A stretch of 13,484 nt of DNA from a virus. Lineage: Duplodnaviria; Heunggongvirae; Uroviricota; Caudoviricetes. Under the pieces are notes generated by a model, which saw nothing but the letters and a program-made list of their open reading frames with translations, had not been told where the DNA came from and ran no database searches. Position numbers and translations under genes: made by a program. Positions 1-13,484 of this stretch are shown here, piece after piece. Within the stretch, counting starts at the first letter, position 1, and each line of letters starts with the position of its first letter. The DNA lies in the IMG/VR virus record IMGVR_UViG_2737471832_000007; one strand, written 5' to 3'.

Positions 1-18
1 CGGAAGTCGCTGTCGTTT

Positions 19-813
19 TCAAAATCGGTGGAGCTGCATGACAAAGTCATCGGGCATTATCTGAACATAAAACACTATCAATAAGTTGGAGTCATTACCG
101 CTGTGTTTAACATGTTTTTTGATATATGATTTATTTTTTAATGCCCAAGAAACCGAATGCGTATATATGCTATCAAAACAATGTGATACATCTAACATCC
201 ACATCACCGAGAATCTTTTCTCAAGCTCAATAAACATCTTACTTTGAAATAGTTTATATATCCTGTTGAAACCGCCATAACTAAAATAAGAGGATGAATA
301 TTTCCTCATTAACTCATCCTTTGTTGTTTCGATATCTTCCCCTTTATATTTTTCCAAAGCATTATTTTCATATAAAAAGAAAGAGTTAGCGACCTTACGT
401 GGGTAGCGAATAGAAAAATTACTTTTTAAAGTATTTAATGTGATAACGGATGAGTATGTTTTATAAAATTCCGAATAATTAATTTGAGATCTTGGGTGAA
501 TTAAAGAAAGATGTCTTTGGCTAAAGGCATCTTTTACTATACAATAGCCAAATGGGGAGCTTTGTTTCTTCTTTTCTCGGTGGCGATCTGCGACACTAAT
601 AGAAGAGTCTAAATTAGGGTTAACTATTTTTTTTAAGAAAGAAGAAACCGGAGTAAAATGTAACAAATCATTACAAACTCTATCATATTCTGTTAAGTTT
701 ATATATAAGCCATCATTTGAAAAAATAATTGGACAATCACCGGGCAGTGTATCACATAGTAAAGCCCTGAGATAATCTTTCTTATCAAGTTTAATGTTTT
801 TCTTTATAACCAT
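19..813 (-). CDS. RT-like protein 2: RT fingers and motif A only; possibly a truncated or frameshifted second reverse transcriptase
   Basis: ATG at 813 overlaps the 3' end of the upstream RT gene by 10 nt. Residues 91-107 CIVKDAFSQRHLSLIHP resemble RT domain 1; residues 206-216 MLDVSHCFDSI (coords 166-198) match RT motif A. No motif B or C before the TGA at 19-21. AT-rich. Confidence 0.5.
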   Translation of the reverse strand: MVIKKNIKLDKKDYLRALLCDTLPGDCPIIFSNDGLYINLTEYDRVCNDLLHFTPVSSFLKKIVNPNLDSSISVADRHREKKKQSSPFGYCIVKDAFSQRHLSLIHPRSQINYSEFYKTYSSVITLNTLKSNFSIRYPRKVANSFFLYENNALEKYKGEDIETTKDELMRKYSSSYFSYGGFNRIYKLFQSKMFIELEKRFSVMWMLDVSHCFDSIYTHSVSWALKNKSYIKKHVKHSGNDSNLLIVFYVQIMPDDFVMQLHRF

Positions 814-2081
814 ATTTTTGTAATCTCAGTATAGCGCTTAAAGTTATACTTTCTATATACTCTATCCACAAAGCCTTTTCTAAAACTATTTCTTAGCAGT
901 TCTTTTTTTTGCTTCAAATTAAAAGGTTTTTTTGCAACACTATTCAAACGCCCAGTATTAGATTGCACACAATATAGCAAAAAGTCATCTAATTTTTTTA
1001 GGGATATGGAGTCAACATCTAACTTCGCATTACTGTAATAAATACCTGTACTTATCTTGCTTTTTTCTAAAGAACTTAACGATTTTATTTTGCGATTTAA
1101 ATCCCTGTTACTAGTCAAAAAAGAAATCCTGTCTAGCAATAGTTTAAAATCACCATTAATATGATAAGAGTAGAAAGACCTAGCTATTCTTGTTTTAATT
1201 TTCTTCAGGCGAGATTTAGATAAATTAACAACAACCTTTCTGTAACAGCTATTAATCTCACCATCTTTGCTCAAAGGTGTGTCTATTATAGAAAACGAGT
1301 ACCCTAGAAAGTCAAATTCATGAAGCAATTTATCCTGTTTATTTAAACCCTTACTTCTCTTTGGTATGCATGGAGATATTTTTAATTTATTTTTATTTAA
1401 AGCCAATCCCTTTGGTAATACATCTTGTATAAATTCCATAAAGGACGCTTCACATTCACAACCACTTGAAACGATTACCATATCATCTACAAATCTTGAA
1501 TAATAAAATACTTCTGGATGCCTATGAATACTATTATCAAATTGTGCCAAGTACAATTCTGATAACATAGGACTAATTTCTAACCCTCTAGGTAATCCTT
1601 TCGAAGAGTGAAGCCTTTCACACGATTTAAGATACCATTCTAGCAAATTTTTTGTATGTCTAGACAGTCGTGTTTCGTTATGTAAGAGCTGAAAAAGCTG
1701 CGGTAAATCAATTGATTCAAAGAAAGACTTTATATCCAAACGATATATTTTGAATGGAGTACCTTCTTCCAAATAAATTTTAAGCTCACTAATTATTGTA
1801 TTTCGTTGTTTGGGACGAAGCGATTCAAGGCATTTTAAATTTGCATTGCAATGTCTAAGTATTATTTTTTCCTTCAAACATGAAGCAGTGTAAACGCAGC
1901 GTCCCTTAATATTTAGTTTCTTTACACTCACACCAGAGCGAAAATTCTCATTAGCAATTAAAACGGCATCACTAATTAATGATTCTAACTCAGCAACATT
2001 ATTTTTTTTAAAATAATAAGCCTTCTCACTTTCACTTAAGTTTCGTTTAAGTGCTGCTGAAGTAAACGGCTGACGGTTCAT
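804..2081 (-). CDS. Reverse transcriptase (defence-associated UG/Abi/DRT-like), 425 aa
   Basis: ATG at 2081 with GAGGG Shine-Dalgarno. Motif A LDIKSFFESI (coords 1710-1739), motif B GLPRGLEISPMLSELYL, motif C FVDD (coords 1482-1493), FLGY motif at residues 258-261, plus a ~165-aa C-terminal extension. No retron VTG motif and no maturase domain. Confidence 0.8.
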   Translation of the reverse strand: MNRQPFTSAALKRNLSESEKAYYFKKNNVAELESLISDAVLIANENFRSGVSVKKLNIKGRCVYTASCLKEKIILRHCNANLKCLESLRPKQRNTIISELKIYLEEGTPFKIYRLDIKSFFESIDLPQLFQLLHNETRLSRHTKNLLEWYLKSCERLHSSKGLPRGLEISPMLSELYLAQFDNSIHRHPEVFYYSRFVDDMVIVSSGCECEASFMEFIQDVLPKGLALNKNKLKISPCIPKRSKGLNKQDKLLHEFDFLGYSFSIIDTPLSKDGEINSCYRKVVVNLSKSRLKKIKTRIARSFYSYHINGDFKLLLDRISFLTSNRDLNRKIKSLSSLEKSKISTGIYYSNAKLDVDSISLKKLDDFLLYCVQSNTGRLNSVAKKPFNLKQKKELLRNSFRKGFVDRVYRKYNFKRYTEITKIWL

Positions 2082-2129
2082 AATACCCTCATTAAACTAT
2101 CCTCTGTACTTTTTATAGCTCTTTCCATC

Positions 2130-2428
2130 ACTTCCCGCAATCGTATCTCCACAACAGCGACCGCTTTATATAGTAATTTTCATAACTTCGATTACAGCTC
2201 AAAACATGCGGTAACCGTGCCATAGTTATACCATTCAACGCCCTTACGCGGGCAGCCCCGCACGCCTGCCCGCTTCGCTTAACAGACTGGTTTTCATGCA
2301 TGCCATAAATCGTCTCAGATACCACCACACAAAGGTTTTCGCCTCAAAAAGGGTGCATAAGACTCATGCATTTTCATGCGCCATAGACATGCACTCATAC
2401 GCTCTCAGGCCAGCCAGGGAAAAGGTGT
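2130..2428 (-). ncRNA. Candidate structured noncoding leader or template RNA upstream of the RT gene (hypothetical)
   Basis: About 350 nt with no convincing ORF between the delta terminator and the RT start. Contains a perfect 8-bp GC stem (2248-2255 pairing 2266-2273), a CATGC-rich motif cluster and an imperfect ~19-bp direct repeat (2291-2309 and 2371-2389). Confidence 0.25.
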
Positions 2429-2455
2429 TAAAAATCCCGGTACTCGACCGGGATT
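2429..2455 (-). terminator. Intrinsic terminator of the late operon
   Basis: Stem ATCCCGG/CCGGGAT (2434-2440 pairing 2448-2454) with a 7-nt loop, followed on the minus strand by TTTT; sits ~20 nt after the delta stop. A T7 run at 2465-2471 on the plus strand may give bidirectional function. Confidence 0.5.
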
Positions 2456-2475
2456 ACGTGGGCGTTTTTTTCTAA

Positions 2476-2748
2476 TCAGACAGGAATCTGCTGACGGCTT
2501 GACAGTTTTGACGCGGAGCCATAGCGATTGAGCGTTTGCTGTTGTTTTACCGGGGGTTGTGATTTGTCTGGTTCCTGTTCATTGCGCCGGGGTTTCATGA
2601 TTATCTTATCCACACTCTCCAGTGCCGTAAATGTGCAGGAACATTCCAGATTCTGGCACTGATACCACGAGCGTTTAACTGACGGAGCTTCATAGGCTGC
2701 TGTTCTGGCGTGTGCAACTGTACCGCATTCCGGACATTTAAGTGCCAT
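2476..2748 (-). CDS. delta: Ogr/Delta-family zinc-finger late-gene transcriptional activator
   Basis: Exact C-x2-C-x22-C-x4-C spacing (CPEC...CQNLEC), the Ogr/Delta finger. ATG at 2748 with GGAG upstream; the ORF-track start at 2757 is a GTG extension. About 90 aa, single domain. Confidence 0.8.
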   Translation of the reverse strand: MALKCPECGTVAHARTAAYEAPSVKRSWYQCQNLECSCTFTALESVDKIIMKPRRNEQEPDKSQPPVKQQQTLNRYGSASKLSSRQQIPV

Positions 2749-2753
2749 TAATA

Positions 2754-3305
2754 TCACTCCTGTATATCGTTAATGTCATTCAGGCGTTGCTGAAAACGCA
2801 GATGTTGTGCCGGGGTGTAAGAACCCTGGCAATCACGAATCATCCCGGGGTCAGGCATCAAACCGGATTCATCCAGGATCTCACGATAATCCCCAGCAAT
2901 TTCAGGCGGTGTTATTGCCAGCTGGCGAACCAGAGCACTGCGTAATATACGGGACGCAACGTCAACCCCTCCGCGCCCCTTCAGGAACGGAGCCAGTGCA
3001 GATGTCAGGGCTGCCCCATTCGCCTGCATAAAATTGCTGAGAGCGGCTTCTGTGCAGGCCTCCATCAGTAAATGCTGCGAGTAAATGCATTCGCGCGCAG
3101 CACAGTTAATTTGCCATTTCAGCACATCCAGACGTTCCCGCAGTAATTCGAGCTGTCGGGCATAATCTGCTGGTTTTTCTGTGGCAGCGAGGAGAGATGT
3201 TATCTGTTGTTCAACGGCTTTTCGGCTCTCATTATGTCCGGCCCACAGAATGCGGGCATTCCGAAAACTGGTAAGTGCCTGGTCAGGCGTGCCTCGGGCC
3301 GTCAT
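2754..3305 (-). CDS. psu: Polarity suppression protein Psu homologue
   Basis: 183 aa. Segments LDVLKWQINCAARECI, FMQANGAALTSALAPFL and YTPAQHLRF resemble P4 Psu as recalled. Strong AAGGAG Shine-Dalgarno; ATGA overlap with the upstream ORF. Confidence 0.75.
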   Translation of the reverse strand: MTARGTPDQALTSFRNARILWAGHNESRKAVEQQITSLLAATEKPADYARQLELLRERLDVLKWQINCAARECIYSQHLLMEACTEAALSNFMQANGAALTSALAPFLKGRGGVDVASRILRSALVRQLAITPPEIAGDYREILDESGLMPDPGMIRDCQGSYTPAQHLRFQQRLNDINDIQE

Positions 3306-3619
3306 ACTGCTTTCTCCTTCTCAGCAAGTTCCTGACGAACCTTAATTTTATGCATAGCTGCCGGAGAGAGTTGATTACTGAAATCCAGACGCGCCGCATA
3401 ATCCGGGGCAACTCCCGCCAGTTTAAACACCGGGTCCTGCTCAGGCATCGCATCGTTAGCCAGAGCCGGTCTGGTGATATGTTTATGAATAAAGTCTTTC
3501 AGCACTGTGTCCGGGTCATTAACTGAATTCACCACACCCACAACGGCACTGGCTTCCCGGCCCATTGTGGATTTAAGCAGGCTCAGCGTCTGAATAAGCG
3601 CTTTTCCATGCGACTGCAT
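3302..3619 (-). CDS. Late-operon protein, unknown function (possibly the C-terminal part of a Sid-like protein)
   Basis: 105 aa; ATG at 3619 preceded by AGGAGG; stop overlaps the psu start (ATGA). Same reading frame as ORF 3629-4045, separated by one TAG and three codons. Confidence 0.6.
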   Translation of the reverse strand: MQSHGKALIQTLSLLKSTMGREASAVVGVVNSVNDPDTVLKDFIHKHITRPALANDAMPEQDPVFKLAGVAPDYAARLDFSNQLSPAAMHKIKVRQELAEKEKAV

Positions 3620-3628
3620 AAAATCCTC

Positions 3629-4045
3629 CTAGATTTGTTTTGCGCGAATATCCACAAGAATGTTATGCGCGTGGATATACTTTCCGGCTAATTCTGCAGC
3701 TTTCTGCGGCAAAAGTGCATTTTCGCTTTCCTGAGCCGCCAGCAGCTCATCAAAATCCTCAAGCGTTTCTCGTCCCAGCGCAATTTCCGTGCGCAGTTTT
3801 TTCATTTCCTTTGAGACCACGCCCTGACTTTCACGAAACAGCGTGCGCCACTCCTCATTCAGTGTGTTCGTCGTGGCTTCCATTTCAGCGCGACGCTGGC
3901 GGATTGTCGCAATATTATCCGCTGCCGCTTTCTGCTGACGACGTGCTTCAAGCCATGCGTTTCTGGCTGTGTTCATGGTTTCCAGTGCCCGCTGCGTTAC
4001 AGCCGGAAAAGTGGAAAGGTTGTTATTTACTGCGGTATTGTTCAT
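3629..4045 (-). CDS. First gene of the Delta-activated late operon; putative Sid-like protein
   Basis: 138 aa, helical/coiled-coil-like composition; ATG at 4045 with AGGAG 5 nt upstream; sits just downstream of two TGT-N12-ACA dyads. Position is analogous to P4 sid; identity not confirmed. Confidence 0.55.
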   Translation of the reverse strand: MNNTAVNNNLSTFPAVTQRALETMNTARNAWLEARRQQKAAADNIATIRQRRAEMEATTNTLNEEWRTLFRESQGVVSKEMKKLRTEIALGRETLEDFDELLAAQESENALLPQKAAELAGKYIHAHNILVDIRAKQI

Positions 4046-4079
4046 GACTTCTCCTGTCGGGTTGGTTCGTTACGTCAAT

Positions 4080-4135
4080 TGTGTCGTGGCTGACACAAGC
4101 ACACTATCGGTGTTCAGTGTGTGGTGGCTGGCACA
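4080..4135 (-). promoter_or_regulatory. Late promoter with two Ogr/Delta-type activator sites (TGT-N12-ACA)
   Basis: TGTgtcgtggctgacACA at 4080-4097 and TGTgtggtggctggcACA at 4118-4135, centres 38 bp apart, upstream of the ATG at 4045. Confidence 0.5.
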
Positions 4136-4223
4136 ACGGGCGCTTGCGGTTATTCAGACGTGGCTATGAAAGCCAGCCAGATAAAAATGCCCTCTGTTTC
4201 AGTCTGCTTTATGTCCCTGATGC

Positions 4224-4411
4224 GGTGGAACAGGTGAAACATGTGTTACAGCTTTGTTTTATAAGACATTTATATACACTGCACCGGTGAAACATCGCGG
4301 GTAACAAGGTGGAACAGCGGATTGGCTGGCGTTACATCTGTTCCACCTCACTATTTCAGAAGGTGGAACAGGTTCAGCCCTGTAAAATACGGTTGTTCCA
4401 CCTGTTTCACC
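4224..4411. repeat. Iteron cluster, crr/ori-like replication region
   Basis: Eight copies of GGTG(G/A)AACA: direct at 4224, 4233, 4286, 4308 and 4362; inverted (TGTT(C/T)CACC) at 4339, 4394 and 4403. Lies immediately downstream of the alpha gene; resembles the P4 TGTTCACC type-I iterons as recalled. Confidence 0.6.
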
Positions 4412-4445
4412 TGTTACCCTTAATAAATAAGACTCACGCAAAGCC

Positions 4446-7118
4446 TTAACCCGGCACCTCGCTGTTGAAGACATAGAGCCTGCGGGGATTCATCTCTGGC
4501 GGGCGAATGGTTGTCTGGAGTTTGCCATCAGTGGAGGGCAGCAGGTATCCACGATCTGCGCACAGACGCGCCACCTTGCGCGGGTCAAATCCCCTGCAGA
4601 TTTCTTTCCAGCCGGACGGCATGACATAGAACGTAGTGACAGCTTCCGTGCCCTGCGCGGTACTGCCTTTCTCCACCCTGCGCCAGCCCACCATATTGCC
4701 GGGGCGGTTGCGCTCGTCATACCAGTCTGCAAAGCGGCTGTACTGATTCGCGGTGAAGAAACTGCGAACCTGCTCCAGTGCGGCGATATCTTCCTGATTG
4801 GCGGTGTGCCCGCGATCTTTCAGCCATGCGTTCAGGCAGACGCGGGTTGCCCGCAGTGCTTCACCCTCAGGCCAGCCGGTGATACCCAGACGGGTTGCCA
4901 GTTCACCTGCCATCGCCACCAGAGCAAAGCGGTTCACAGCCCGGCCCACCTGATTGCCTGCATCTTTCGGAGTCAGGGCGGCAGCATATTCCTTCATCAG
5001 CGATTTTGCCTGTGCCGTTAGTCCGTTAAGATCAGCGGTCAGTGCTTTCAGCCACTCCCGGAACGGCGAACCGTAGTAGCAGGACGTGGCCCATTCAAGA
5101 TGCTCTGCCAGAGCCTTGCCGCTGTCGAAGCCGTGCAGCTCCTCAAAAACGCCAAACTTCCCGGAATCGCTGGGGATCTGGATCATCCTGACTTCCATCC
5201 CGGCAAAAGTACGCTCACCGGCCTTTGCCGCATGTTCGGTCAGAGACAACTCGCCAGTTGAAAAGAACAACAGGCGCCACTGCTTACGGGTACGCAGCTC
5301 ACCGTCCGTACCGGCACGGCCCTTGCCCTGACCGTTTGCCAGCATGTAGGCGATATTGCCTGCCTCGCGTCCGTCAACTTCCCGGATCTCATCAAGCATC
5401 ATGGCGGCATCGTTGCGGCGGCTGGCGCATCCCTCCAGCGCGTTGCCGGTGGCCCGCCATGTCTGCCAGTAGTCAGGCCCGCCGCAGACGGAGGTTGCCG
5501 CTTTCATGGTGGTGGTCTTACCGTCTGTCGATTCCCCTTTGAGGTGGTAGCCGCCGCCGTCCATACCAACCAGCCGTAACAGTGGTGCAGCAAAGGCCAG
5601 GCTGACAGCAAATGCCACGCGGGAGTTGCCGGTACAGTAGCGGGATACATGCTCCCGCCATTCCTCTGTTGTGCCCGACACGCGGAAATCACGCCCCTGC
5701 ACGGAAGTGGTCTGGAGAATGACACCCTCTGCACCTTCACCGCTGACCTCATCCTGCAGGACGTAAACCTGACCATGCCAGCCAGTACGACTGACGCAGG
5801 TCACGCGGCGTTCCGGTTTACACAGTGAGATATATTCCATCAGGCGTGCGCGTGCCTCACCGGTGGTGCTGATATAAGACAGCCCGTTAACCAGCAGTAC
5901 CCGGCGCAGTTCCTCACCACTGCCGCTCAGCATTTCCATCGGCATCGCCCAGCGGCGACACTCACCCCACGTATCTTCCCATTCCAGCAGTCGTCCGAAG
6001 TTACCGCCATCGGCATCGCAGGTGATTGCCGTCACGCGCAGCGGGCTGCATATTTTGACGTTCTGGATCTCCGTCTCACCGTTGCGCTGTACCTGCTTTT
6101 CATACCAGAGATATTCCTGGGTAAGACGGAACCCGTGCGGCAGTTGCGTGCGGCCTTCCCCGCACAGTACCAGACCGTTGCGAAAGGCTTCACGGGCACG
6201 GGTAATACCGTGCTCCCGATGAAAGTCATTCCAGTCAGCCTTAATCTCTCCTGGTGGCAGCGTCATCCAGCCGCCAACAGCTTTTGCCGCCCGTTCAGCA
6301 AAGGCTCTGCCGGGATTCTCACCTCCGTCCTGAAAATCGTTATCACCGGCGATGATAATTTTTACCTCAGGCCAGCGTGCCCGCAGCGACTGCGCCACAT
6401 TGGGCAGGTTGCCCGCAGATATGGCAGCCACTACGCATCCGGCAGTGAGCTGACTTACCGTCAGCGCCGTAGCGTAACCTTCGGTAATCACCACCTGTAC
6501 CGGTGGTTCAGACGGTAACGGGCTGAGCGACACAAACGCGCCTTTCATCGTGCTGCCGGGCAGTATGCTTTTTTCACCCGTCGGGGCGATAAGCTGTGCA
6601 CCAGTCACGGCTCCGGTGTTGGTCGTGAGTGGTAACAGCAGGGAACCGGCAGGAAAATCCTTACCGCTGATATGCTGCACGCTTCCGGTCAGAGAGGCCG
6701 GGTATCCGGCGAACCCTTTTCCTGTCAGATAGGCGCTTTCTCCCGTGTGGCTCTCTTTCATCAGCGCCGCCACGGTAAGACCCATGTCGCGTTTAGGGGC
6801 TTTTTGTCTGGCAGGCTTAACAGGCAGTTCCTGCACATCCGGCACATTAAGCACCTGCGCCACCTCCTGCGCAGCCTTTCTGATGCTGTAACCGGTTACG
6901 AGCTTAACCAGATCCAGACCGTCACCATTGCCACACTGGCTGCAGATCCACGTCCCGCGCCCGTCAAGGTCATCAAGGCGAAAACGATCCTTGCCCCCAC
7001 ATTTCGGGCAGGGACCGTGCCTGCCGTTTTCAGGTACATCAATACGCAGCATCTGGAGAATAACGGGCCATTTCCCCCGTGCGGCGGCTGAAATCTGCGT
7101 AACCGTCTGTATTGTCAT
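4446..7118 (-). CDS. alpha: Alpha-type DNA primase-helicase (zinc-binding N-terminus, primase, D5-like helicase)
   Basis: 890 aa. N-terminal CPKCGG...CSQCG zinc motif, GKT Walker-A-like motif, and overall resemblance to P4 alpha. ATG at 7118 in an ATGA overlap with the upstream ORF. Confidence 0.85.
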   Translation of the reverse strand: MTIQTVTQISAAARGKWPVILQMLRIDVPENGRHGPCPKCGGKDRFRLDDLDGRGTWICSQCGNGDGLDLVKLVTGYSIRKAAQEVAQVLNVPDVQELPVKPARQKAPKRDMGLTVAALMKESHTGESAYLTGKGFAGYPASLTGSVQHISGKDFPAGSLLLPLTTNTGAVTGAQLIAPTGEKSILPGSTMKGAFVSLSPLPSEPPVQVVITEGYATALTVSQLTAGCVVAAISAGNLPNVAQSLRARWPEVKIIIAGDNDFQDGGENPGRAFAERAAKAVGGWMTLPPGEIKADWNDFHREHGITRAREAFRNGLVLCGEGRTQLPHGFRLTQEYLWYEKQVQRNGETEIQNVKICSPLRVTAITCDADGGNFGRLLEWEDTWGECRRWAMPMEMLSGSGEELRRVLLVNGLSYISTTGEARARLMEYISLCKPERRVTCVSRTGWHGQVYVLQDEVSGEGAEGVILQTTSVQGRDFRVSGTTEEWREHVSRYCTGNSRVAFAVSLAFAAPLLRLVGMDGGGYHLKGESTDGKTTTMKAATSVCGGPDYWQTWRATGNALEGCASRRNDAAMMLDEIREVDGREAGNIAYMLANGQGKGRAGTDGELRTRKQWRLLFFSTGELSLTEHAAKAGERTFAGMEVRMIQIPSDSGKFGVFEELHGFDSGKALAEHLEWATSCYYGSPFREWLKALTADLNGLTAQAKSLMKEYAAALTPKDAGNQVGRAVNRFALVAMAGELATRLGITGWPEGEALRATRVCLNAWLKDRGHTANQEDIAALEQVRSFFTANQYSRFADWYDERNRPGNMVGWRRVEKGSTAQGTEAVTTFYVMPSGWKEICRGFDPRKVARLCADRGYLLPSTDGKLQTTIRPPEMNPRRLYVFNSEVPG

Positions 7119-7498
7119 ACTTCCCCCTGATACAACGTCACACCGGTACTGCAGAAGTCATCAAAGGCCGCCGGAAGCGTGCGGTACATCTCCGCCATCA
7201 CTTCACAGCCGCGCGCGGTCAGTACCGGCGGCGCGGTCAGCAGTGACGGCTCCAGCATGTCAGTCAGCAGTGCCAGCGCGGCAGCGGCGCCCTGTGCTTC
7301 GCCGTACTCGTTAATCAGTACGCACTCGATATGCAGCGCAATGGCCATTTCAATACGCTCCACCGTCAGGCTGTGCGGACCATACTGATCACTGCCAGTT
7401 TCGTTCAGCATTTTCTGCCGCCATGCTGAAGCAATAGCCCGCCGGTAAAGCGCGGTGGTCATTTCTGCCGGGAAAATGGAAACCTGCGGCTGGTTCAT
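7115..7498 (-). CDS. Early-operon hypothetical protein
   Basis: 127 aa; ATGA overlaps at both ends (coupled to the upstream ORF and to alpha). Confidence 0.55.
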   Translation of the reverse strand: MNQPQVSIFPAEMTTALYRRAIASAWRQKMLNETGSDQYGPHSLTVERIEMAIALHIECVLINEYGEAQGAAAALALLTDMLEPSLLTAPPVLTARGCEVMAEMYRTLPAAFDDFCSTGVTLYQGEV

Positions 7499-7779
7499 CT
7501 GGCACCTCCTTCAATCAGTGCGCAGCTGTGTGCAATATCCGTCAAATCTGCCAGCAGGTACTCCATCAGCGCGGCGACACCATGCGCACAGCCAGTGTCC
7601 AGTGCTCCGGCCTGAGACGGGTATTCAGAAAAGAGAAGCTGGAGCATGTCGCAGGCATTTCTTGCGCGGGTCAGCTTTCCGAAACTGTCCTCTGACAACC
7701 CATAGGCAAAAACACCGGTATTGTGTTTTTCAGGCAAAGTGTGGCCCTGAGCACCGTTGTGCCCGTTTGAAATATTCAT
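7495..7779 (-). CDS. Early-operon small protein (possibly epsilon-like, by position and size)
   Basis: 94 aa; ATG at 7779 with GGAG upstream. Assignment is positional only. Confidence 0.5.
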   Translation of the reverse strand: MNISNGHNGAQGHTLPEKHNTGVFAYGLSEDSFGKLTRARNACDMLQLLFSEYPSQAGALDTGCAHGVAALMEYLLADLTDIAHSCALIEGGAR

Positions 7780-7810
7780 CGTGGATTACTCCGTTTTCAG
7801 CGGTATTGTG

Positions 7811-8170
7811 TCAGAGAAACTTTGAATAGTGACCGTCATCAGGCTCAGCAGAACGCCATATGCTACGCTCCCGCCAGCGGATAAATAGCACAGACGGATG
7901 CAGTGTCAGCGGGCCGGAACCACTACCGCCTGCAGGAGCTGGTGCAGGCTTAAAGAGCGGTACATCAAACAGGCGCGTATATCGCTGTTCAAACCATGCC
8001 AGAGGGCAGGAAGAAAGCTGGTTGTCGCTGTCATGACGTATCAGCACTTCACAGCTGAATTCAGGATTAACCAGCGCCACAGAGGGCGAGGCTTCTATTA
8101 ATCGGATAATCGTGACCGTCCAGCCACGTTCATGCTGCCAGCGTTCGCCGGGATGCGGATAATTACGCAT
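7811..8170 (-). CDS. Early-operon hypothetical protein
   Basis: ATG at 8170 preceded by GGAGG (MRNYPHPG...). The ORF-track start at 8200 is a non-ATG extension. Confidence 0.55.
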   Translation of the reverse strand: MRNYPHPGERWQHERGWTVTIIRLIEASPSVALVNPEFSCEVLIRHDSDNQLSSCPLAWFEQRYTRLFDVPLFKPAPAPAGGSGSGPLTLHPSVLFIRWRERSIWRSAEPDDGHYSKFL

Positions 8171-8339
8171 GTTCACCTCCGCAGGGAATGCGCCCGGCAA
8201 AGCTCAGTACATAGTCCGGGGCAAGTCTGCGCCGCGCTGACCGCTCGTTATCTGCGGTGATCCTTAACATCACAGGACGGGCATTGCGTTGACTGCGGTT
8301 GATCGCCGCAAATAACCAGGTACACTTCTGTTTAGCCAT
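8163..8339 (-). CDS. Small first ORF of the early operon (58 aa), unknown function
   Basis: ATG at 8339 with AAGAGG upstream; TAA at 8163-8165 overlaps the next gene's ATG (ATGCGTAA). Below the ORF-track size cutoff. Confidence 0.4.
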   Translation of the reverse strand: MAKQKCTWLFAAINRSQRNARPVMLRITADNERSARRRLAPDYVLSFAGRIPCGGEHA

Positions 8340-8367
8340 CTTCGTTACCTCTTATAACGGTTGGTTA

Positions 8368-8402
8368 AATGCCCGATTTGTGTTCCCGCACAATCGGGCA
8401 TT
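8368..8402 (-). promoter_or_regulatory. Long stem-loop in the early-operon leader
   Basis: AATGCCCGATT (8368-8378) pairs perfectly with AATCGGGCATT (8392-8402), with additional inner pairing; lies between the divergent promoter region and the first early ORF. Confidence 0.35.
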
Positions 8403-8428
8403 GCTTTTACAAGCGAACTATACTTACA

Positions 8429-8474
8429 ATGGTAATTACCATGTAGTCATCATATTCTAGGGTAATTACCATGT
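8429..8474. promoter_or_regulatory. Two palindromic operator sites in the divergent promoter region
   Basis: Perfect 14-bp palindrome ATGGTAATTACCAT at 8429-8442; second copy GGTAATTACCATGT at 8461-8474 overlaps the RHH start codon. Spacing is 30 bp. Confidence 0.5.
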
Positions 8475-8644
8475 CAACACCACAAGAGAAACGTTCTCCA
8501 CCATTCCAAATGCGTCTTACCGACGATTTTAGGTTGCAACTCGAAAACGAAATGCGCAAAGATGGAGATAGCGCGTTGGCAACTTGGATTAAAAGAATTT
8601 TACGCAAAGAACTCCAATCACGCGGGATTGACCCTAAAGGCTAA
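8471..8644 (+). CDS. Arc/MetJ-type ribbon-helix-helix DNA-binding protein (57 aa)
   Basis: FQMRLTDDFRLQLENEMRKDGDSALATWIKRIL matches the Arc-like RHH pattern. ATG at 8471 with AGGGT upstream, TAA at 8642-8644. Not in the ORF track because it is under 60 aa. Confidence 0.55.
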   Translation: MSTPQEKRSPPFQMRLTDDFRLQLENEMRKDGDSALATWIKRILRKELQSRGIDPKG

Positions 8645-8676
8645 TCAGTTAAATATTACTAACTATCAATTAAGGC

Positions 8677-8967
8677 TTAGGGAGTAGGTGATAATCTATT
8701 CCCTTTATTAATTGCTCTTGCCTTATTTCTCATCCCCTCAAACTGTTGACCTGAGTTTTCTTCAAACCCATCTCGCCACTTATAATAATCAGCAGCGCGC
8801 CATCGTGACATCCGACCTATTTTTATAGGTTTTGGAAAGCGATTCAGAGAAATCAATCGATAAATCCATTTATCACTTAATAAACAATCGGAAGTAATAA
8901 ACTTCATATCGATCAGAGAATCCATTGAAGGTCGTTGCAAAGTAGTATTATCATGTTTAGATAACAT
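8677..8967 (-). CDS. AlpA-family phage regulatory protein / Vis-like DNA-binding protein
   Basis: WIYRLISLNRFPKPIKIGRMSRWRAADYYKW matches the AlpA HTH and FPKPIK signature. ATG at 8967 with GGAG upstream; an internal start at 8925 or 8907 is possible. AT-rich. Confidence 0.7.
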   Translation of the reverse strand: MLSKHDNTTLQRPSMDSLIDMKFITSDCLLSDKWIYRLISLNRFPKPIKIGRMSRWRAADYYKWRDGFEENSGQQFEGMRNKARAINKGNRLSPTP

Positions 8968-9092
8968 TCATCATTCTCCGTTTATCTAAGTCTATTGGCT
9001 TCAACACGGAAAATTAAAACATAGGTTATAAATGAGAAAAATGTGACTAATGAAAAAAATTCAAAATCATTAGCCACAACAATTGTTAATAT

Positions 9093-9917
9093 TTAGTTAA
9101 ACTTAATGTTTTTCATGCAACTACGTAGCAAACTAACAACAGTATCATAGCTCAAAGGCGGTTCTCCGGTCTTAGGCCAGAACTCACTGGCATGTTGAAA
9201 AAGATAATCAGCTATCGCTGCTGGACTCTCTCTTCTTAGCCTCATATCACGATGATAGAGCGAAATAATAGCCATGAGTATTTCAGCTCGAGGAACAGCA
9301 TGTTTTTGTTTTTGCGCCTCAGATTGTGATTTATATTTATTGGCGTTTTTTATCCGCTTTTGTTCGCATAAGACTATATCAATGAATTTTTGAATCTGTA
9401 CCTTTGTAATCCACAAAACCTCAAAAAGATAATAATTTTCTTTTTCATCATAATTTACATAAAGAATTACCTTACAATTTATATTAGGCGTACCCGCCAG
9501 TAGAAAATGAATAGGCCAGGAATCCGGTTGCCCCTCATGCTTAACTAACAGATCTTTATATTCATAATCAACAGCCCATAAACCGGATATGAAGCATCGA
9601 ATAAAACCATTTTTATCAATTAAATTATCTTCATCAGGGATTCTTATAGAACTTAAGTCTGACAACATAATATTGCCATTTCTATCTCGTGGTAAATATT
9701 TCAGATTAGATAAGAACTCATCTATTTGACCATCAATCTTCAAACCACATGAAACATCATACTCATCATCATGGAATTCCATGCATAGCTCTACATCTCG
9801 TTCTCTGGCAAACCAGAGTATATCCTTTTCACTACAACCAATTTTTTCTGAAGCTTCATCCAACTGGTAGTAATCTCTGAGCAGAGAATCAGTATTATTA
9901 ATTTTTAAAATATTCAT
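9093..9917 (-). CDS. Unknown 274-aa protein translationally coupled to the integrase
   Basis: ATG at 9917 overlaps the int stop (ATGA). AT-rich; possible N-terminal HTH-like stretch (EKIGCSEKDILWFARE). No recognisable family. Confidence 0.6.
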   Translation of the reverse strand: MNILKINNTDSLLRDYYQLDEASEKIGCSEKDILWFARERDVELCMEFHDDEYDVSCGLKIDGQIDEFLSNLKYLPRDRNGNIMLSDLSSIRIPDEDNLIDKNGFIRCFISGLWAVDYEYKDLLVKHEGQPDSWPIHFLLAGTPNINCKVILYVNYDEKENYYLFEVLWITKVQIQKFIDIVLCEQKRIKNANKYKSQSEAQKQKHAVPRAEILMAIISLYHRDMRLRRESPAAIADYLFQHASEFWPKTGEPPLSYDTVVSLLRSCMKNIKFN

Positions 9918-11104
9918 TTATGAGTACCAATTTGCTCAGATAAATAATTAGCATACCATTGCATCATTTCTCTTCTCCCTTCGAGATATTGGGCATGGTT
10001 ATAAATTCCACGAATAGAGTTTTTGTCCGAATGAGCAAGCTGGGTTTCAATCCAAGCGCTGTTAAATCCTTTCTCATGTAGGATTGTACTCATCGTATGC
10101 CTGAAACCATGCCCCGTAACACGCCCTGCATATCCAATACGTTTAAACACCTGATTAATGCTTGCTTCACTCATAAATTTGCTGGGATCGTTGCGTCCAG
10201 GGAACATCAGCGGGTAGTTCCCAGTTAGTTCTTTCAAACTTTTGAGATGGGATAATGCTTGTTTTGACAACGGGACAATATGGCTCCTACGCATTTTCAT
10301 ACGTTCTTTTGGGATCTCCCACACCGCATTATCAAAATCCACCTCTCGCCACTCACCTGCTCGTAGTTCTCCAGTTCGTAGACCTGTCAGGATAAGTAAA
10401 TGCGCCCCCAACAATACAATTGGACTTCCTGAATAAGAATTAAGGGCATTAAAGAACTCCGGTAGTTCGTTGGCTTTGAGGAATGGATAGTGGACTGCTT
10501 CATGTCCTTGCATCGCACTGGCAAGATCCGGTGCCGGATTGTAGATTGCCCTACCCGTTACGATGGCATAGCGAAAAACTTCACCGCATCGCTGACGGAC
10601 TTTCTTCGCTTTCTCCATAGCGCCTCGAGCTTCTATCAACCTCAGAACTTCAAGCAGTTCAAGGGGCTGAATATCAGCTATAGGTCTGTGCCCAATATGC
10701 GGGAAAATGTCTTTCTCGAATGCCTCAATGATGTCGGAAGCATAGCCCTCAGACCATTTGGGTGATTTCATTTTGTGCCACTCTAACGCCACTTCTCTGA
10801 ATGGGTTAAGTGTCTCACTCGCTGCATTTAAAGCCTGCTTTTTGGCTTTTTTGACTTCGCCGGGATCTTCACCTGCTGCGAGTAGTTTCTTCGCGTCTTC
10901 TCGTTTTTGTCTGGCATCAGCAAGTGTGACTGTTGGATAAACACCAAAGGACAATCGTTTCTCTTTACCAGCAAAACGGTATTTCATACGCCAGTAACGC
11001 GAGCCATTAGGTTCGACCTGAAGGTATAGGCCACCTCCATCAAACAGCTTGTAGCTCTTCTCTTTTCCTTTCGCAGCTTCAACCTTGCGGGCATTCAGCA
11101 TCAT
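9914..11104 (-). CDS. int: P4-type tyrosine integrase
   Basis: N-terminal arm-binding signature (KLFDGGGLYLQVEPNGSRYWRMKYRFAGKEKRLSFGVYP); catalytic HGFRHT and GIYNHAQY motifs. Likely start is the ATG at 11104 (MMLNARK...); the ORF-track start at 11173 is a TTG extension. Confidence 0.9.
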   Translation of the reverse strand: MMLNARKVEAAKGKEKSYKLFDGGGLYLQVEPNGSRYWRMKYRFAGKEKRLSFGVYPTVTLADARQKREDAKKLLAAGEDPGEVKKAKKQALNAASETLNPFREVALEWHKMKSPKWSEGYASDIIEAFEKDIFPHIGHRPIADIQPLELLEVLRLIEARGAMEKAKKVRQRCGEVFRYAIVTGRAIYNPAPDLASAMQGHEAVHYPFLKANELPEFFNALNSYSGSPIVLLGAHLLILTGLRTGELRAGEWREVDFDNAVWEIPKERMKMRRSHIVPLSKQALSHLKSLKELTGNYPLMFPGRNDPSKFMSEASINQVFKRIGYAGRVTGHGFRHTMSTILHEKGFNSAWIETQLAHSDKNSIRGIYNHAQYLEGRREMMQWYANYLSEQIGTHK

Positions 11105-11180
11105 TGGGGGCACATTTCCTAGATCGAACAGAACATGCCCCTGATTGTGCCCCCAACCGCGTGTTGATTTCAAGAGACAA

Positions 11181-11254
11181 GGGTTGACCTCAAACGTATG
11201 AAAACAACGTAATATATATGTTTTTAAATGATTTTGTTGATGTGGGTTGACTTG
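11181..11254. repeat. Direct repeats GGGTTGAC(C/T)T between int and the att core (candidate Int arm-type sites)
   Basis: GGGTTGACCT at 11181-11190 and GGGTTGACTT at 11244-11253. Confidence 0.3.
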
Positions 11255-11268
11255 GGAAAACTAGGTGA

Positions 11269-11314
11269 TGGTGCCGATAATAGGAGTCGAACCTACGACC
11301 TTCGCATTACGAAT
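11269..11314 (-). tRNA. Partial tRNA-Thr(CGU): 3'-terminal 46 nt only (att core, not a functional tRNA)
   Basis: Reverse complement reads ATTCGTAATGCGAAGGTCGTAGGTTCGACTCCTATTATCGGCACCA: anticodon loop with CGT, T-arm, acceptor 3' strand and CCA. The 5' D-arm and acceptor half are absent upstream. Confidence 0.7.
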
Positions 11315-11618
11315 TATAAGAATCCGCTTCTAATTCAAAGCATTACCCCATCAACACTGCGCTCACAAGTCCCACCACATCAAAACATGTAAAGCCTTGC
11401 AAGCCATTGCTAGGCCTTATGTGTCTCAGTTTTGTCCCACTACGACCCGCATAACCAATAAGAAGATTGCAGTGATGTCAAACGACACAGCAGCCTTCTT
11501 TTCCTTCATACTTTCCCCACCCAGCATGCATACCTTCTACCATAACTGTAGTGAATGTCTGTTATGAGCGAGGAGCGGAAGTTGGAATGCATACTTAAAT
11601 CGAGCAATTTTGAGTTAT

Positions 11619-11626
11619 GGGGGGGG
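11619..11626. repeat. Homopolymeric G8 tract upstream of the 384-aa gene
   Basis: Eight consecutive G at 11619-11626, about 30 bp upstream of a TATGAT -10-like hexamer (11655-11660). Confidence 0.6.
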
Positions 11627-11707
11627 CTGGTCAACCTACTGAATTGTTTTTGCCTATGATAACGGTCACAATCAACCTCTAAGTGTGCTGATTTGAAAGT
11701 GATTTCC

Positions 11708-12847
11708 ATGAAGATGACCAAGGCAGATTTTGGTGTAACTATTGATGATACTTTAATAACTGATTTTCGAGATGTGGTTAATGAAGGGGAGTTTGCTTAC
11801 AGCTACTTCATAAACAGAAATGGTAAAAACCAGTTCAGCCCTATCTGTTCGTGCATGGATTGGATAAGCGTTTCTGTTCGCAATCTGATGAACTTCCCTG
11901 AGCTGTCGGAAGATATTGATGTCAAGGCCATGCAGGTTTACTCCCTTATATCATCTATTGATATTGCTGTGGAGGCGTTGCAGCAGCTTCACCGCATCAT
12001 TGAGAGTGATGATAAGTTAGCGAGGTGGCCTTTCAAGAAATCAACGAATGTCTTTAAGAATAAAACGCCCTATCTTTCACATGAGGATGATGACGCATAC
12101 TTTAAGAGTATTCGAGCTATCTTTGGTGCTCACCCTACAAATCTTAAAAATAGTGATGGTGAGCGACTGTTTGCAAGCTGGCCTCATTTTCATGCTTTCA
12201 ATGAAAATGATTTCACTATAAGCCTTTACAACAACACGTCAGGGAAAGATGATGTTATTTTCGGCATTAAATTCGATGAGCTAATTACATATATTGAAGA
12301 TAGGTATAAATATCTAACAAGCCTAAAGGGTTCCGTAATAGCAATCCGTATAAAACATTACAGCACCCTATCCAAACAGATTATACCGTCTACTGATAAC
12401 ATTCATGCTGAGTTAAAGTTGCTTCTTTCAGAAGTTGCGGTGCGAGGTGATAACGATTATTACCGAATGGAAGTGGAAGAGTTAATAAAGTTGTTCGAGG
12501 GGAATGTTAAAGAGGCACATCTCAAGGATGAAGCTGACGTATTTTTAAGTAAACTACATCCAATTGCAGTAGAGATTAGATATAATCTTCAGGAAATGAA
12601 TATTGAGGATTTAGCAACTAAGCATGGCGTGTTGATTTCAACACTTCCGAAAAATGCCCTGCATTACGTTCTTCAGAAAATGTTTACTTGGCTCCACTCT
12701 GATAGATATGACCCAATGGGTGGCTTTTACTTGGACAAGTTAAATGAATATTCAGGCGGGCGATACAATTTTTGTTCTGAGGATGATGACAGTACAACTC
12801 TATTGAAGCTCCGGATGATGTTGCATTGGTATCATCAACAAAAATAG
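11708..12847 (+). CDS. Orphan 379/384-aa protein of unknown function (possible Abi/HEPN-like; unconfirmed)
   Basis: Long AT-rich ORF ending TAG at 12845-12847. ATG at 11708; the ORF-track start at 11693 is TTG. Contains an R-x5-H stretch (RAIFGAH). No family recognised. Confidence 0.6.
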   Translation: MKMTKADFGVTIDDTLITDFRDVVNEGEFAYSYFINRNGKNQFSPICSCMDWISVSVRNLMNFPELSEDIDVKAMQVYSLISSIDIAVEALQQLHRIIESDDKLARWPFKKSTNVFKNKTPYLSHEDDDAYFKSIRAIFGAHPTNLKNSDGERLFASWPHFHAFNENDFTISLYNNTSGKDDVIFGIKFDELITYIEDRYKYLTSLKGSVIAIRIKHYSTLSKQIIPSTDNIHAELKLLLSEVAVRGDNDYYRMEVEELIKLFEGNVKEAHLKDEADVFLSKLHPIAVEIRYNLQEMNIEDLATKHGVLISTLPKNALHYVLQKMFTWLHSDRYDPMGGFYLDKLNEYSGGRYNFCSEDDDSTTLLKLRMMLHWYHQQK

Positions 12848-13144
12848 GCTTAGCCACGAAAACAAGCAATACAGTTGGAAGTTCGTGTGACCTATGCGCT
12901 AGGTATTCTGAGACGACAGTGTGACCTGCTCCCTGTTGATTAACATAGGCTGACACTAGCAACGTCCTCTACTGGCACATAGCAGCCCCAGAGACAGTGG
13001 TGTAAAGTCATGGAGGGTCGGTGGGAGGATATTCAGTTTCATTCATGCCGAAATACGGTAAAATCTATAATAGATGGAAATCATTCAATACTCGCACTAA
13101 AGTCCACCATCCAGCCGCAGCAAGTTCTTGCATACGACGTGTCT

Positions 13145-13172
13145 GCGGGTTCAACTCCCGCCAGCTCCACCA
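13145..13172 (+). other. tmRNA (ssrA) 3'-end-like fragment; possible second att core
   Basis: GCGGGTTCAACTCCCGCCAGCTCCACCA matches the 3' terminal T-arm and acceptor of enterobacterial tmRNA as recalled. No tmRNA 5' domain or tag reading frame upstream. Confidence 0.45.
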
Positions 13173-13302
13173 ATCATGATTGGACGGTGTAAGGACAACA
13201 CCAATAAAAACAGGAAGTTAGCAGTCTCAGCAGGACACCAACCAGACGGTGAGCAGACAAAAAAGGATACGCAAAGGAGCCGCGGCTCCCAAGTGACATG
13301 AA

Positions 13303-13325
13303 AGCCCGCATCTGCGGGCTTTTTC
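13303..13325 (+). terminator. Intrinsic terminator
   Basis: GCCCGC (13304-13309), loop ATCT, GCGGGC (13314-13319), followed by TTTTT. Confidence 0.55.
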
Positions 13326-13484
13326 GTTTCATCTGCAAAAATGTCTATACATCAGCTGCCACAAACGGAACAACAGCCTTTATTGATGTAAGCGTCGTCT
13401 CAGCACCGTCTGGCAGATCCTGAAATTCCTGAGAGAATAGTGGACACCAAATATGGTGGACGCTATCCATGAAATCATTAACCG

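Follow-up and report, generated by a model that had tools for sequence, protein, structure and literature searches.

Gene content of the satellite

The window, by which we mean the whole stretch of 13,484 nucleotides that was analysed, contains an E. coli P4-like satellite, which sits at the tRNA-Thr (thrW) site with proA on one side and the pao genes on the other. Identity of the window to E. coli DETEC-E223 and WCHEC025970 is 99.6-99.9% over a shared span running from window position 100 to about 11314-11569. All main satellite genes lie on the minus strand, and read from right to left their order begins with int, the gene under study, here named X, and an AlpA-family gene. The int gene (9914-11173, minus strand) encodes a P4-type tyrosine integrase with Arm-DNA-bind_3, Phage_int_M and Phage_integrase domains; its longest ORF starts from a TTG at 11173, and the RefSeq start is at 11104. 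Gene X (9093-9917, minus strand) starts with an ATG and encodes 274 amino acids. It is followed by a gene for a 96-aa AlpA-family regulator or excisionase-like protein (8677-8967, minus strand), which gives weak matches to Pfam Phage_AlpA and phrog_66, aligns with K-12 AlpA and EcCIMP1 AlpA, and is the conserved downstream partner of X. Further along lie a divergent Arc-like ORF of 57 aa (8471-8644, plus strand), an icd-like gene (start codon at 8339) with three small genes on the minus strand, a primase of the TOPRIM/DUF927 type and not P4 alpha (Pox_D5) (4446-7118, minus strand), and the satellite genes sid, psu and delta (minus strand). The element joins this P4 hijack module (sid-psu-delta) to a PICI-like early region. 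At the opposite end from X lies the cargo hotspot, occupied by a DRT3 defence system (19-2081, with drt3a at 804-2081 and drt3b cut by the left window end), a location in line with that published for the P4 hotspot (PMC13586616, PMC8628076).

The first 99 bases of the window are the end of an IS1 element, 99% identical to the IS1A copy in locus L006 (6821-6919). This insertion truncates drt3b: the remaining ORF (19-813; 264 aa) corresponds only to positions 1-209 of a Drt3b profile that has 647, and Drt3b in relatives measures 672 aa. Because of this truncation, the DRT3 system of the satellite is probably inactivated. To the right of int (11269-13484), only a partial tRNA-Thr/att copy is present, and ARAGORN finds no tRNA. 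The match to WCHEC025970 stops at 11314, and beyond about 11570 the window differs from DETEC-E223, which carries Avs2 there; the sequence beyond this point was found in only 33 genomes, annotated as 'hypothetical protein'. The partial att copy, together with the differing right-hand sequence, suggests tandem or variable islands at thrW. For the 384-aa plus-strand ORF in this part (11693-12847), which lies outside the finding on X, no family was found. In a search of the whole window (1-13484), neither the P4 CI/C4 and isrK immunity RNA families nor any other Rfam family reached its gathering threshold.

The start of the early region contains the palindrome ATGGTAATTACCAT in two perfect copies (8429-8444 and 8459-8474). 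The palindromes flank a minus-strand sigma-70 promoter (11/12; 8477-8449) directed towards the icd-like/primase operon, and the pair also overlaps the start of the divergent Arc-like ORF. The 8429-8477 region looks like a satellite immunity switch. In L115 and L117, which have other integration modules, a YlcI/YnfO-family gene replaces the small plus-strand Arc-like gene. Between the promoter and the icd-like start codon there is a perfect 11-nt inverted repeat, AATGCCCGATT / AATCGGGCATT, with its arms 13 nt apart (8368-8402), which would form a hairpin in the early-operon leader.

The presence of X as a single 274-aa ORF was confirmed. It is annotated in RefSeq as hypothetical protein WP_001471076.1, occurs in 66 of 5,426 complete E. 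coli genomes, in one copy each and always with the integrase adjacent, and has a dN/dS of 0.11-0.16, similar to int and alpA. These observations establish that X is a real gene under purifying selection. On the minus strand, the int/X junction reads ...CATAAATGAATATT, so that the ATG of X (9917-9915) and the TGA of int (9916-9914) share the four nucleotides ATGA (9914-9917). The sequence-only reading, made before any database search, had pointed out this overlap, and the same junction recurs in most fis-site homologs and in other alleles, although it is not universal in the family, since gaps of 1-184 nt occur too. From the overlap we infer that X is translationally coupled to int. Two further remarks of that reading also held: the composition of X is atypical compared to int (GC content 34.4% versus 45.8%, and 50-59% for the satellite core), and X has no recognisable family, as searches against Pfam, PADLOC, PHROGs and NCBIfam yielded no match, PADLOC returning 0 families at E<=1. 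PDB sequence profiles gave noise only, and a tblastn search of the 'phages' collection found no match to X.

Just 3' of the X stop codon lies an inverted repeat (9042-9078, minus strand), which on the plus strand reads TGTGACTAATGA-13 nt-TCATTAGCCACA and is followed on the minus (transcribed) strand by a T-run (9030-9041). The RNA hairpin has a folding energy of -10 kcal/mol (z -3.7), and conservation of the repeat arms extends from E. coli to Pantoea. At this position each of the alleles examined carries a repeat of its own, inverted or direct, and the arms share a G-N-N-TAA core. The repeat may be a terminator of the int-X transcript, a protein-binding site, or both, and the transcript may end at this hairpin ahead of a separately controlled alpA. 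No convincing sigma-70 promoter was found in the X-alpA intergenic region.

Occurrence and allele exchange of gene X

In more than 20 independent contexts, an X homolog of 230-326 aa directly follows a tyrosine integrase and precedes an AlpA-family gene. These contexts span tRNA-Thr, tRNA-Arg and fis sites, in Enterobacterales and Laribacter, and the int-X-alpA order was present in every context read, from E. coli, Shigella, Citrobacter, Pantoea, Laribacter and metagenomic Enterobacterales. In readable contexts, the gene after X encodes an AlpA-family or small HTH protein of 61-99 aa, and beyond it lies the replication module of the satellite, whose primase is of either the DUF927 or the D5_N/Pox_D5 type. 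Only 44 X clusters, mostly of 250-326 aa, were retrieved when 1.84 billion representative proteins were searched with a profile. When the clusters of ten representatives were looked up, all named members were hypothetical proteins from Enterobacterales, and one further named cluster came from Laribacter; the X-family searches returned members from these two groups only.

The integrase clade of X is found in 84 genomes, 66 with the window allele and 13 with two other alleles. Counting this integrase clade alone, the X superfamily is present in about 1.5% of complete E. coli genomes. Relatives in which int is 89-93% identical in DNA carry a 262-265-aa protein in the X slot, and these proteins are full-length, distant X homologs (25-31% identical). 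The satellite core itself is present in 334 genomes at 98-99% identity, also joined to other integration modules. On the same core, the tRNA-Arg module carries an X-family member (hhalign 99.4%), and the tRNA-Leu module has an unrelated 212-aa protein in the X slot, which was found only with that different integrase module. The 98-99% identity of the core extends from the primase to the icd-like gene. Integration modules of at least three kinds (tRNA-Thr, tRNA-Leu and tRNA-Arg) are attached to this core, as L115, L116 and L117 (E. coli ESY001, MY732 and AMSCJX03) show, with the junction in the regulatory region around window position 8365-8400. This is clear integration-module swapping.

For the fis-site islands, IMG/VR was scanned for the fis att repeat, which gave 25 fis-site integrases, 14 of them followed by a member of the X superfamily. 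All but one of these 14 members overlap int by 4 nt (ATGA) or 1 nt, and alpA lies 14-100 nt further on. Homology between the thrW-type and fis-type profiles extends along their whole length (239 columns, hhalign 99.7%, E 2.5e-25). At another seven fis-site integrases, the gene that follows and overlaps int is an ORF of 242-290 aa which goes unrecognised by the X profile. One of these, of 290 aa, was scanned against Pfam and is DUF6387 (L049, 2395-3267), and three sequenced relatives (280-284 aa; L066, L078 and L088) closely resemble the L049 protein; in all four loci the gene overlaps int by 1 or 4 nt. Among the loci found with the fis att pattern in IMG/VR, none was Vibrio-like: where the fis gene could be read, its product was always close to the Fis of E. 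coli (95-98 of 98 residues), and the remaining loci had a GC content of 0.45-0.52. Based on the profile alignments, P4-like and fis-site satellites appear to have one X superfamily in common, a link that is new here.

Among satellites with the same integrase clade and AlpA-like gene, two (L007 5946-6950; L019 8786-9790) carry a P2-family major capsid gene (Phage_cap_P2). They also have a 288-aa capsid neighbour, an Ash or Icd-like gene, a DUF927 primase and Ogr/Delta, and are without sid and psu. These elements may be capsid-encoding relatives of P4-like satellites.

The divergence of X is very different from that of its neighbours. Between allele types of the thrW integrase clade, amino acid identity is 91-97% for int and 75-100% for the AlpA-like protein versus 22-34% for X, and between L006 and L007 these values are 97%, 100% and 58%, respectively. 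DNA similarity to L006 and L007 ends 30-40 nt before the int stop codon (window 9946-9954) and resumes at 8922, inside alpA. The swapped cassette (8923-9945, minus strand) thus runs from the last 30-40 nt of int through X and the intergenic region into the first 45 nt of alpA. It has no DNA similarity to relatives in which int is about 91-92% identical (nucleotide) and the alpA core 78%, and Int differs between allele types only in its last 8-10 residues. Within one allele lineage, the comparison of E. coli with Pantoea gives dN values of 0.30 (X), 0.32 (int) and 0.30 (alpA). Because X diverges at the rate of its neighbours within a lineage, yet shares only 22-34% identity between alleles, the alignments point to replacement of the X cassette by ancient alleles through recombination and not to continuous fast evolution. 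To judge from these comparisons, X alleles are exchanged independently of int and alpA, and the existence of ancient X alleles with breakpoints at the 3' end of int and the 5' end of alpA is likewise new here.

The sequence-only reading had suggested that X might occupy a second cargo or defence position, and had proposed comparing the slot across related satellites, with the same gene in all relatives speaking against cargo. Gene identity at this position is largely constant, the slot holding the same superfamily or a similar-sized protein, and the variability that does exist takes the form of deep, swapped alleles. A second cargo position is thereby disfavoured, also in view of the lack of a PADLOC match. 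Since one superfamily occupies the slot in all thrW-type relatives and the DRT3 hotspot is at the other end, X is best regarded, as far as sequence comparison goes, as a conserved part of the satellite integration module and not a variable cargo slot.

The X protein and its possible function

Sensitive profile searches and structure prediction, which had been proposed at the outset, resulted in a superfamily of hypothetical proteins and an AF2 model with a weak winged-helix-like N-terminus and no catalytic motif. The model was built from 16 sequences and has a mean pLDDT of 82. It predicts a weakly supported winged-helix-like domain at about residues 15-61, a variable alpha/beta centre that is confidently predicted (about 62-171), a long helix (172-192), a basic linker, YKSQSEAQKQKHAVPR, that is conserved but of low confidence (190-205), and a conserved C-terminal helical bundle (207-270). 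Mean identity across the family is 35% for the C-terminal domain, 28% for the N-terminal domain and 15% for the centre, and the centre has no conserved candidate catalytic residues across the family. X shows no effector, nuclease, NTPase or transmembrane signature, and neither its sequence nor its fold resembles a characterised repressor or other protein in PHROGs, PDB or BFVD. The protein is acidic, with a net charge of -8 and a pI of 5.4; the N-terminal domain (residues 1-62) has a net charge of -9, and the family mean for the centre is -8. This acidity argues against a classical operator-binding repressor and favours protein-protein interactions.

The reading that we favour, tentatively and at somewhat less than an even chance, is that X is an accessory or control factor of excision and integration associated with Int and AlpA, of the type of the integrase-overlapping gene iolg. 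In the satellite PICMI115 of Vibrio chagasii, iolg lies between int and alpA with an ATGA overlap with int, is expressed constitutively together with int, and its deletion abolished helper-induced excision, which was restored by int and iolg together and not by iolg alone (PMC10803314). A role of X in excision would be supported by the int-X-alpA synteny, the recurring ATGA or 1-nt junction and this deletion result, and the absence of catalytic residues and of a PADLOC match, the dN/dS of 0.11-0.16 and the conserved ends of the protein fit such a factor. X would be made together with Int from the int transcript, its start being coupled to the int stop, and would act as a protein-binding accessory or control factor in Int/AlpA-mediated excision and integration. 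Its conserved N- and C-terminal domains would contact conserved partners, which could be Int, AlpA or DNA close to alpA, and each allele would owe a different specificity to its variable acidic centre. Co-translation with Int, the excision role (from PICMI115 iolg) and the partners are inferred, and the excision step draws on one experiment in a different satellite, in which a polar effect on int is possible, since complementation used int and iolg together. The suggestion made from the sequence alone that X could be a recombination directionality or regulatory factor survives in part: the positional analogy to iolg (PMC10803314) favours a regulatory role, and X is not a homolog of AlpA or Xis.

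An unlikely alternative, though the most likely of the rivals, is that X is a Stl-like sensor or specificity element that holds alpA or excision off until a helper-phage product engages its centre, different alleles answering different helpers or giving hetero-immunity between satellites that share an att site. The allele pattern resembles that of immunity or specificity determinants, X being far more divergent than int and alpA between modules yet evolving at the rate of its neighbours within one lineage, and the swapped cassette takes in the X-alpA intergenic region, with its allele-specific inverted repeat, and the 5' end of alpA. In addition, X adjoins int, as stl does, and its predicted N-terminal fold is helix-turn-helix-like. 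However, that putative HTH domain is itself acidic, as is the whole protein, which is unusual for an operator-binding repressor, X is co-directional with the genes it would have to repress, and the 9042-9078 repeat is equally well explained as an intrinsic terminator. The satellite also has a separate candidate immunity switch at 8429-8477, with the Arc-like ORF, palindromes and a strong promoter, and deletion of iolg in PICMI115 abolished excision instead of derepressing it (PMC10803314).

A bolder version of the accessory-factor reading, which we consider quite improbable, is that X is a new specificity adaptor of Gram-negative satellites, whose ends dock to the Int/AlpA machinery while the acidic centre reads a helper-phage product. 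If so, the swapped allele would decide which helper licenses excision, and X would be the functional counterpart of Stl for P4-like satellites and GN-PICIs.

Less probable again is a role for X as a sequence-specific transcription factor or an RDF, of the excisionase/MerR winged-helix type, that binds the att arms or the alpA promoter directly. The N-terminal domain is acidic, the window X protein has no Pfam HTH match, and HTH_17 matched only 3 of 32 X relatives, with E-values of 0.023 or weaker (up to 1). Furthermore, att and int are constant while X alleles change, and hhalign of the X family profile against the AlpA profile gave a probability of 0.4%. The possibility that X is a duplicated or extended AlpA was rejected on the same hhalign result, and membership of the AlpA/Xis/excisionase RDF family was rejected since there is no Phage_AlpA profile match and the size and charge do not fit.

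The least probable reading makes X a single-gene accessory for anti-phage defence or interference, carried along in the integration zone as a small cargo. Satellites are known to act as reservoirs for defence genes (PMC9122126, PMC13586616) and the X segment is AT-rich (34% GC), flanked by recombination breakpoints and extremely diverse in its alleles, but the slot is always held by the same superfamily, minimal-sized islands included, X is tightly linked to int with a coupled start, the known P4 hotspot lies elsewhere and is filled by DRT3, and neither a PADLOC match, nor an effector, nuclease, NTPase or transmembrane signature, nor conserved catalytic residues were found.

Gram-negative satellites are usually drawn with int and alpA as the only genes of their integration zone, and a third int-coupled gene has been reported once before, in Vibrio PICMIs, as needed for excision and of unknown nature. 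E. coli P4-like satellites and enterobacterial fis-site islands appear to carry one large unannotated superfamily in this int-overlapping slot. X would provide a tractable E. coli/P2 system for control of excision by Int, AlpA and a third factor, and for helper specificity set by the allele. The data also give DUF6387 a defined genomic role, as an int-overlapping gene in fis-site islands.

Comparison with known systems

At the tRNA-Thr site used by the window satellite, the PICI EcCIMP1 is without an X homolog, a small ORF being all that separates its int from alpA. YfjH of K-12 CP4-57, between intA and alpA, was considered as a counterpart and rejected, being encoded on the opposite strand and unrelated to X. 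Recombination directionality factors are proteins of about 60-100 aa and basic. X resembles the RDFs AlpA, Vis, Xis and TorI in its location in the integration zone beside a P4-type integrase and in its predicted winged-helix-like N-terminus, but differs in being 274 aa long and acidic, without profile similarity (hhalign 0.4%), and a genuine AlpA-family gene lies immediately downstream of it.

Like Stl of the SaPIs and PICIs, X is int-adjacent and highly divergent between otherwise similar islands, and both are modular in domain logic, with conserved ends and a variable centre. Unlike Stl, X is acidic and co-directional with alpA and the downstream operon instead of divergent, and its positional analogue iolg is needed for excision, whereas Stl represses excision. 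The PHROGs, PDB and BFVD searches turned up no characterised repressor with a sequence or fold like that of X.

The X slot also has something in common with the P4 gop-beta-cII hotspot, as both consist of AT-rich DNA between recombination breakpoints in a P4-like satellite (PMC9122126). However, the P4 hotspot is situated between psu/delta and the att-int end, where the window satellite has DRT3 (19-2081), and its contents are unrelated between elements, while the X slot holds one superfamily or a similar-sized protein. DUF6387 (PF19924) shares with X the int-overlapping slot in fis-site islands, with a 4-nt overlap and 280-290 aa, but it was missed by both X-family HMMs in the search of fis-island ORFs.

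The closest likeness is to the iolg/icg genes of PICMIs. These comprise 13 families of unknown function, with starts that share 1, 4 or 13 nt with the int stop, most often as ATGA (PMC10803314). X, too, is flanked by int and alpA and shares their strand, its start forms an ATGA overlap with the end of int (9914-9917), and it is without an annotated domain. In both cases many highly diverse families occupy the slot, and the islands are small, helper-dependent and primase-encoding. X therefore belongs to the iolg class by position, its likeness to PICMI115 IOLG being a positional one. A member of the X superfamily, Dda3937_01589, is four locus-tag numbers away from Dda3937_01593, which is listed in a PICMI-like element of Dickeya dadantii 3937 (PMC10803314), and because of this proximity Dda3937_01589 is probably part of that element. 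The two systems differ in their hosts, X residing in an E. coli P4-like satellite (sid-psu-delta, DUF927 primase) at tRNA-Thr and the PICMIs at the fis site of Vibrio. For X, the comparisons reveal a superfamily link across att sites and the swapping of alleles, neither of which has been described for the iolg of PICMIs (PMC10803314).
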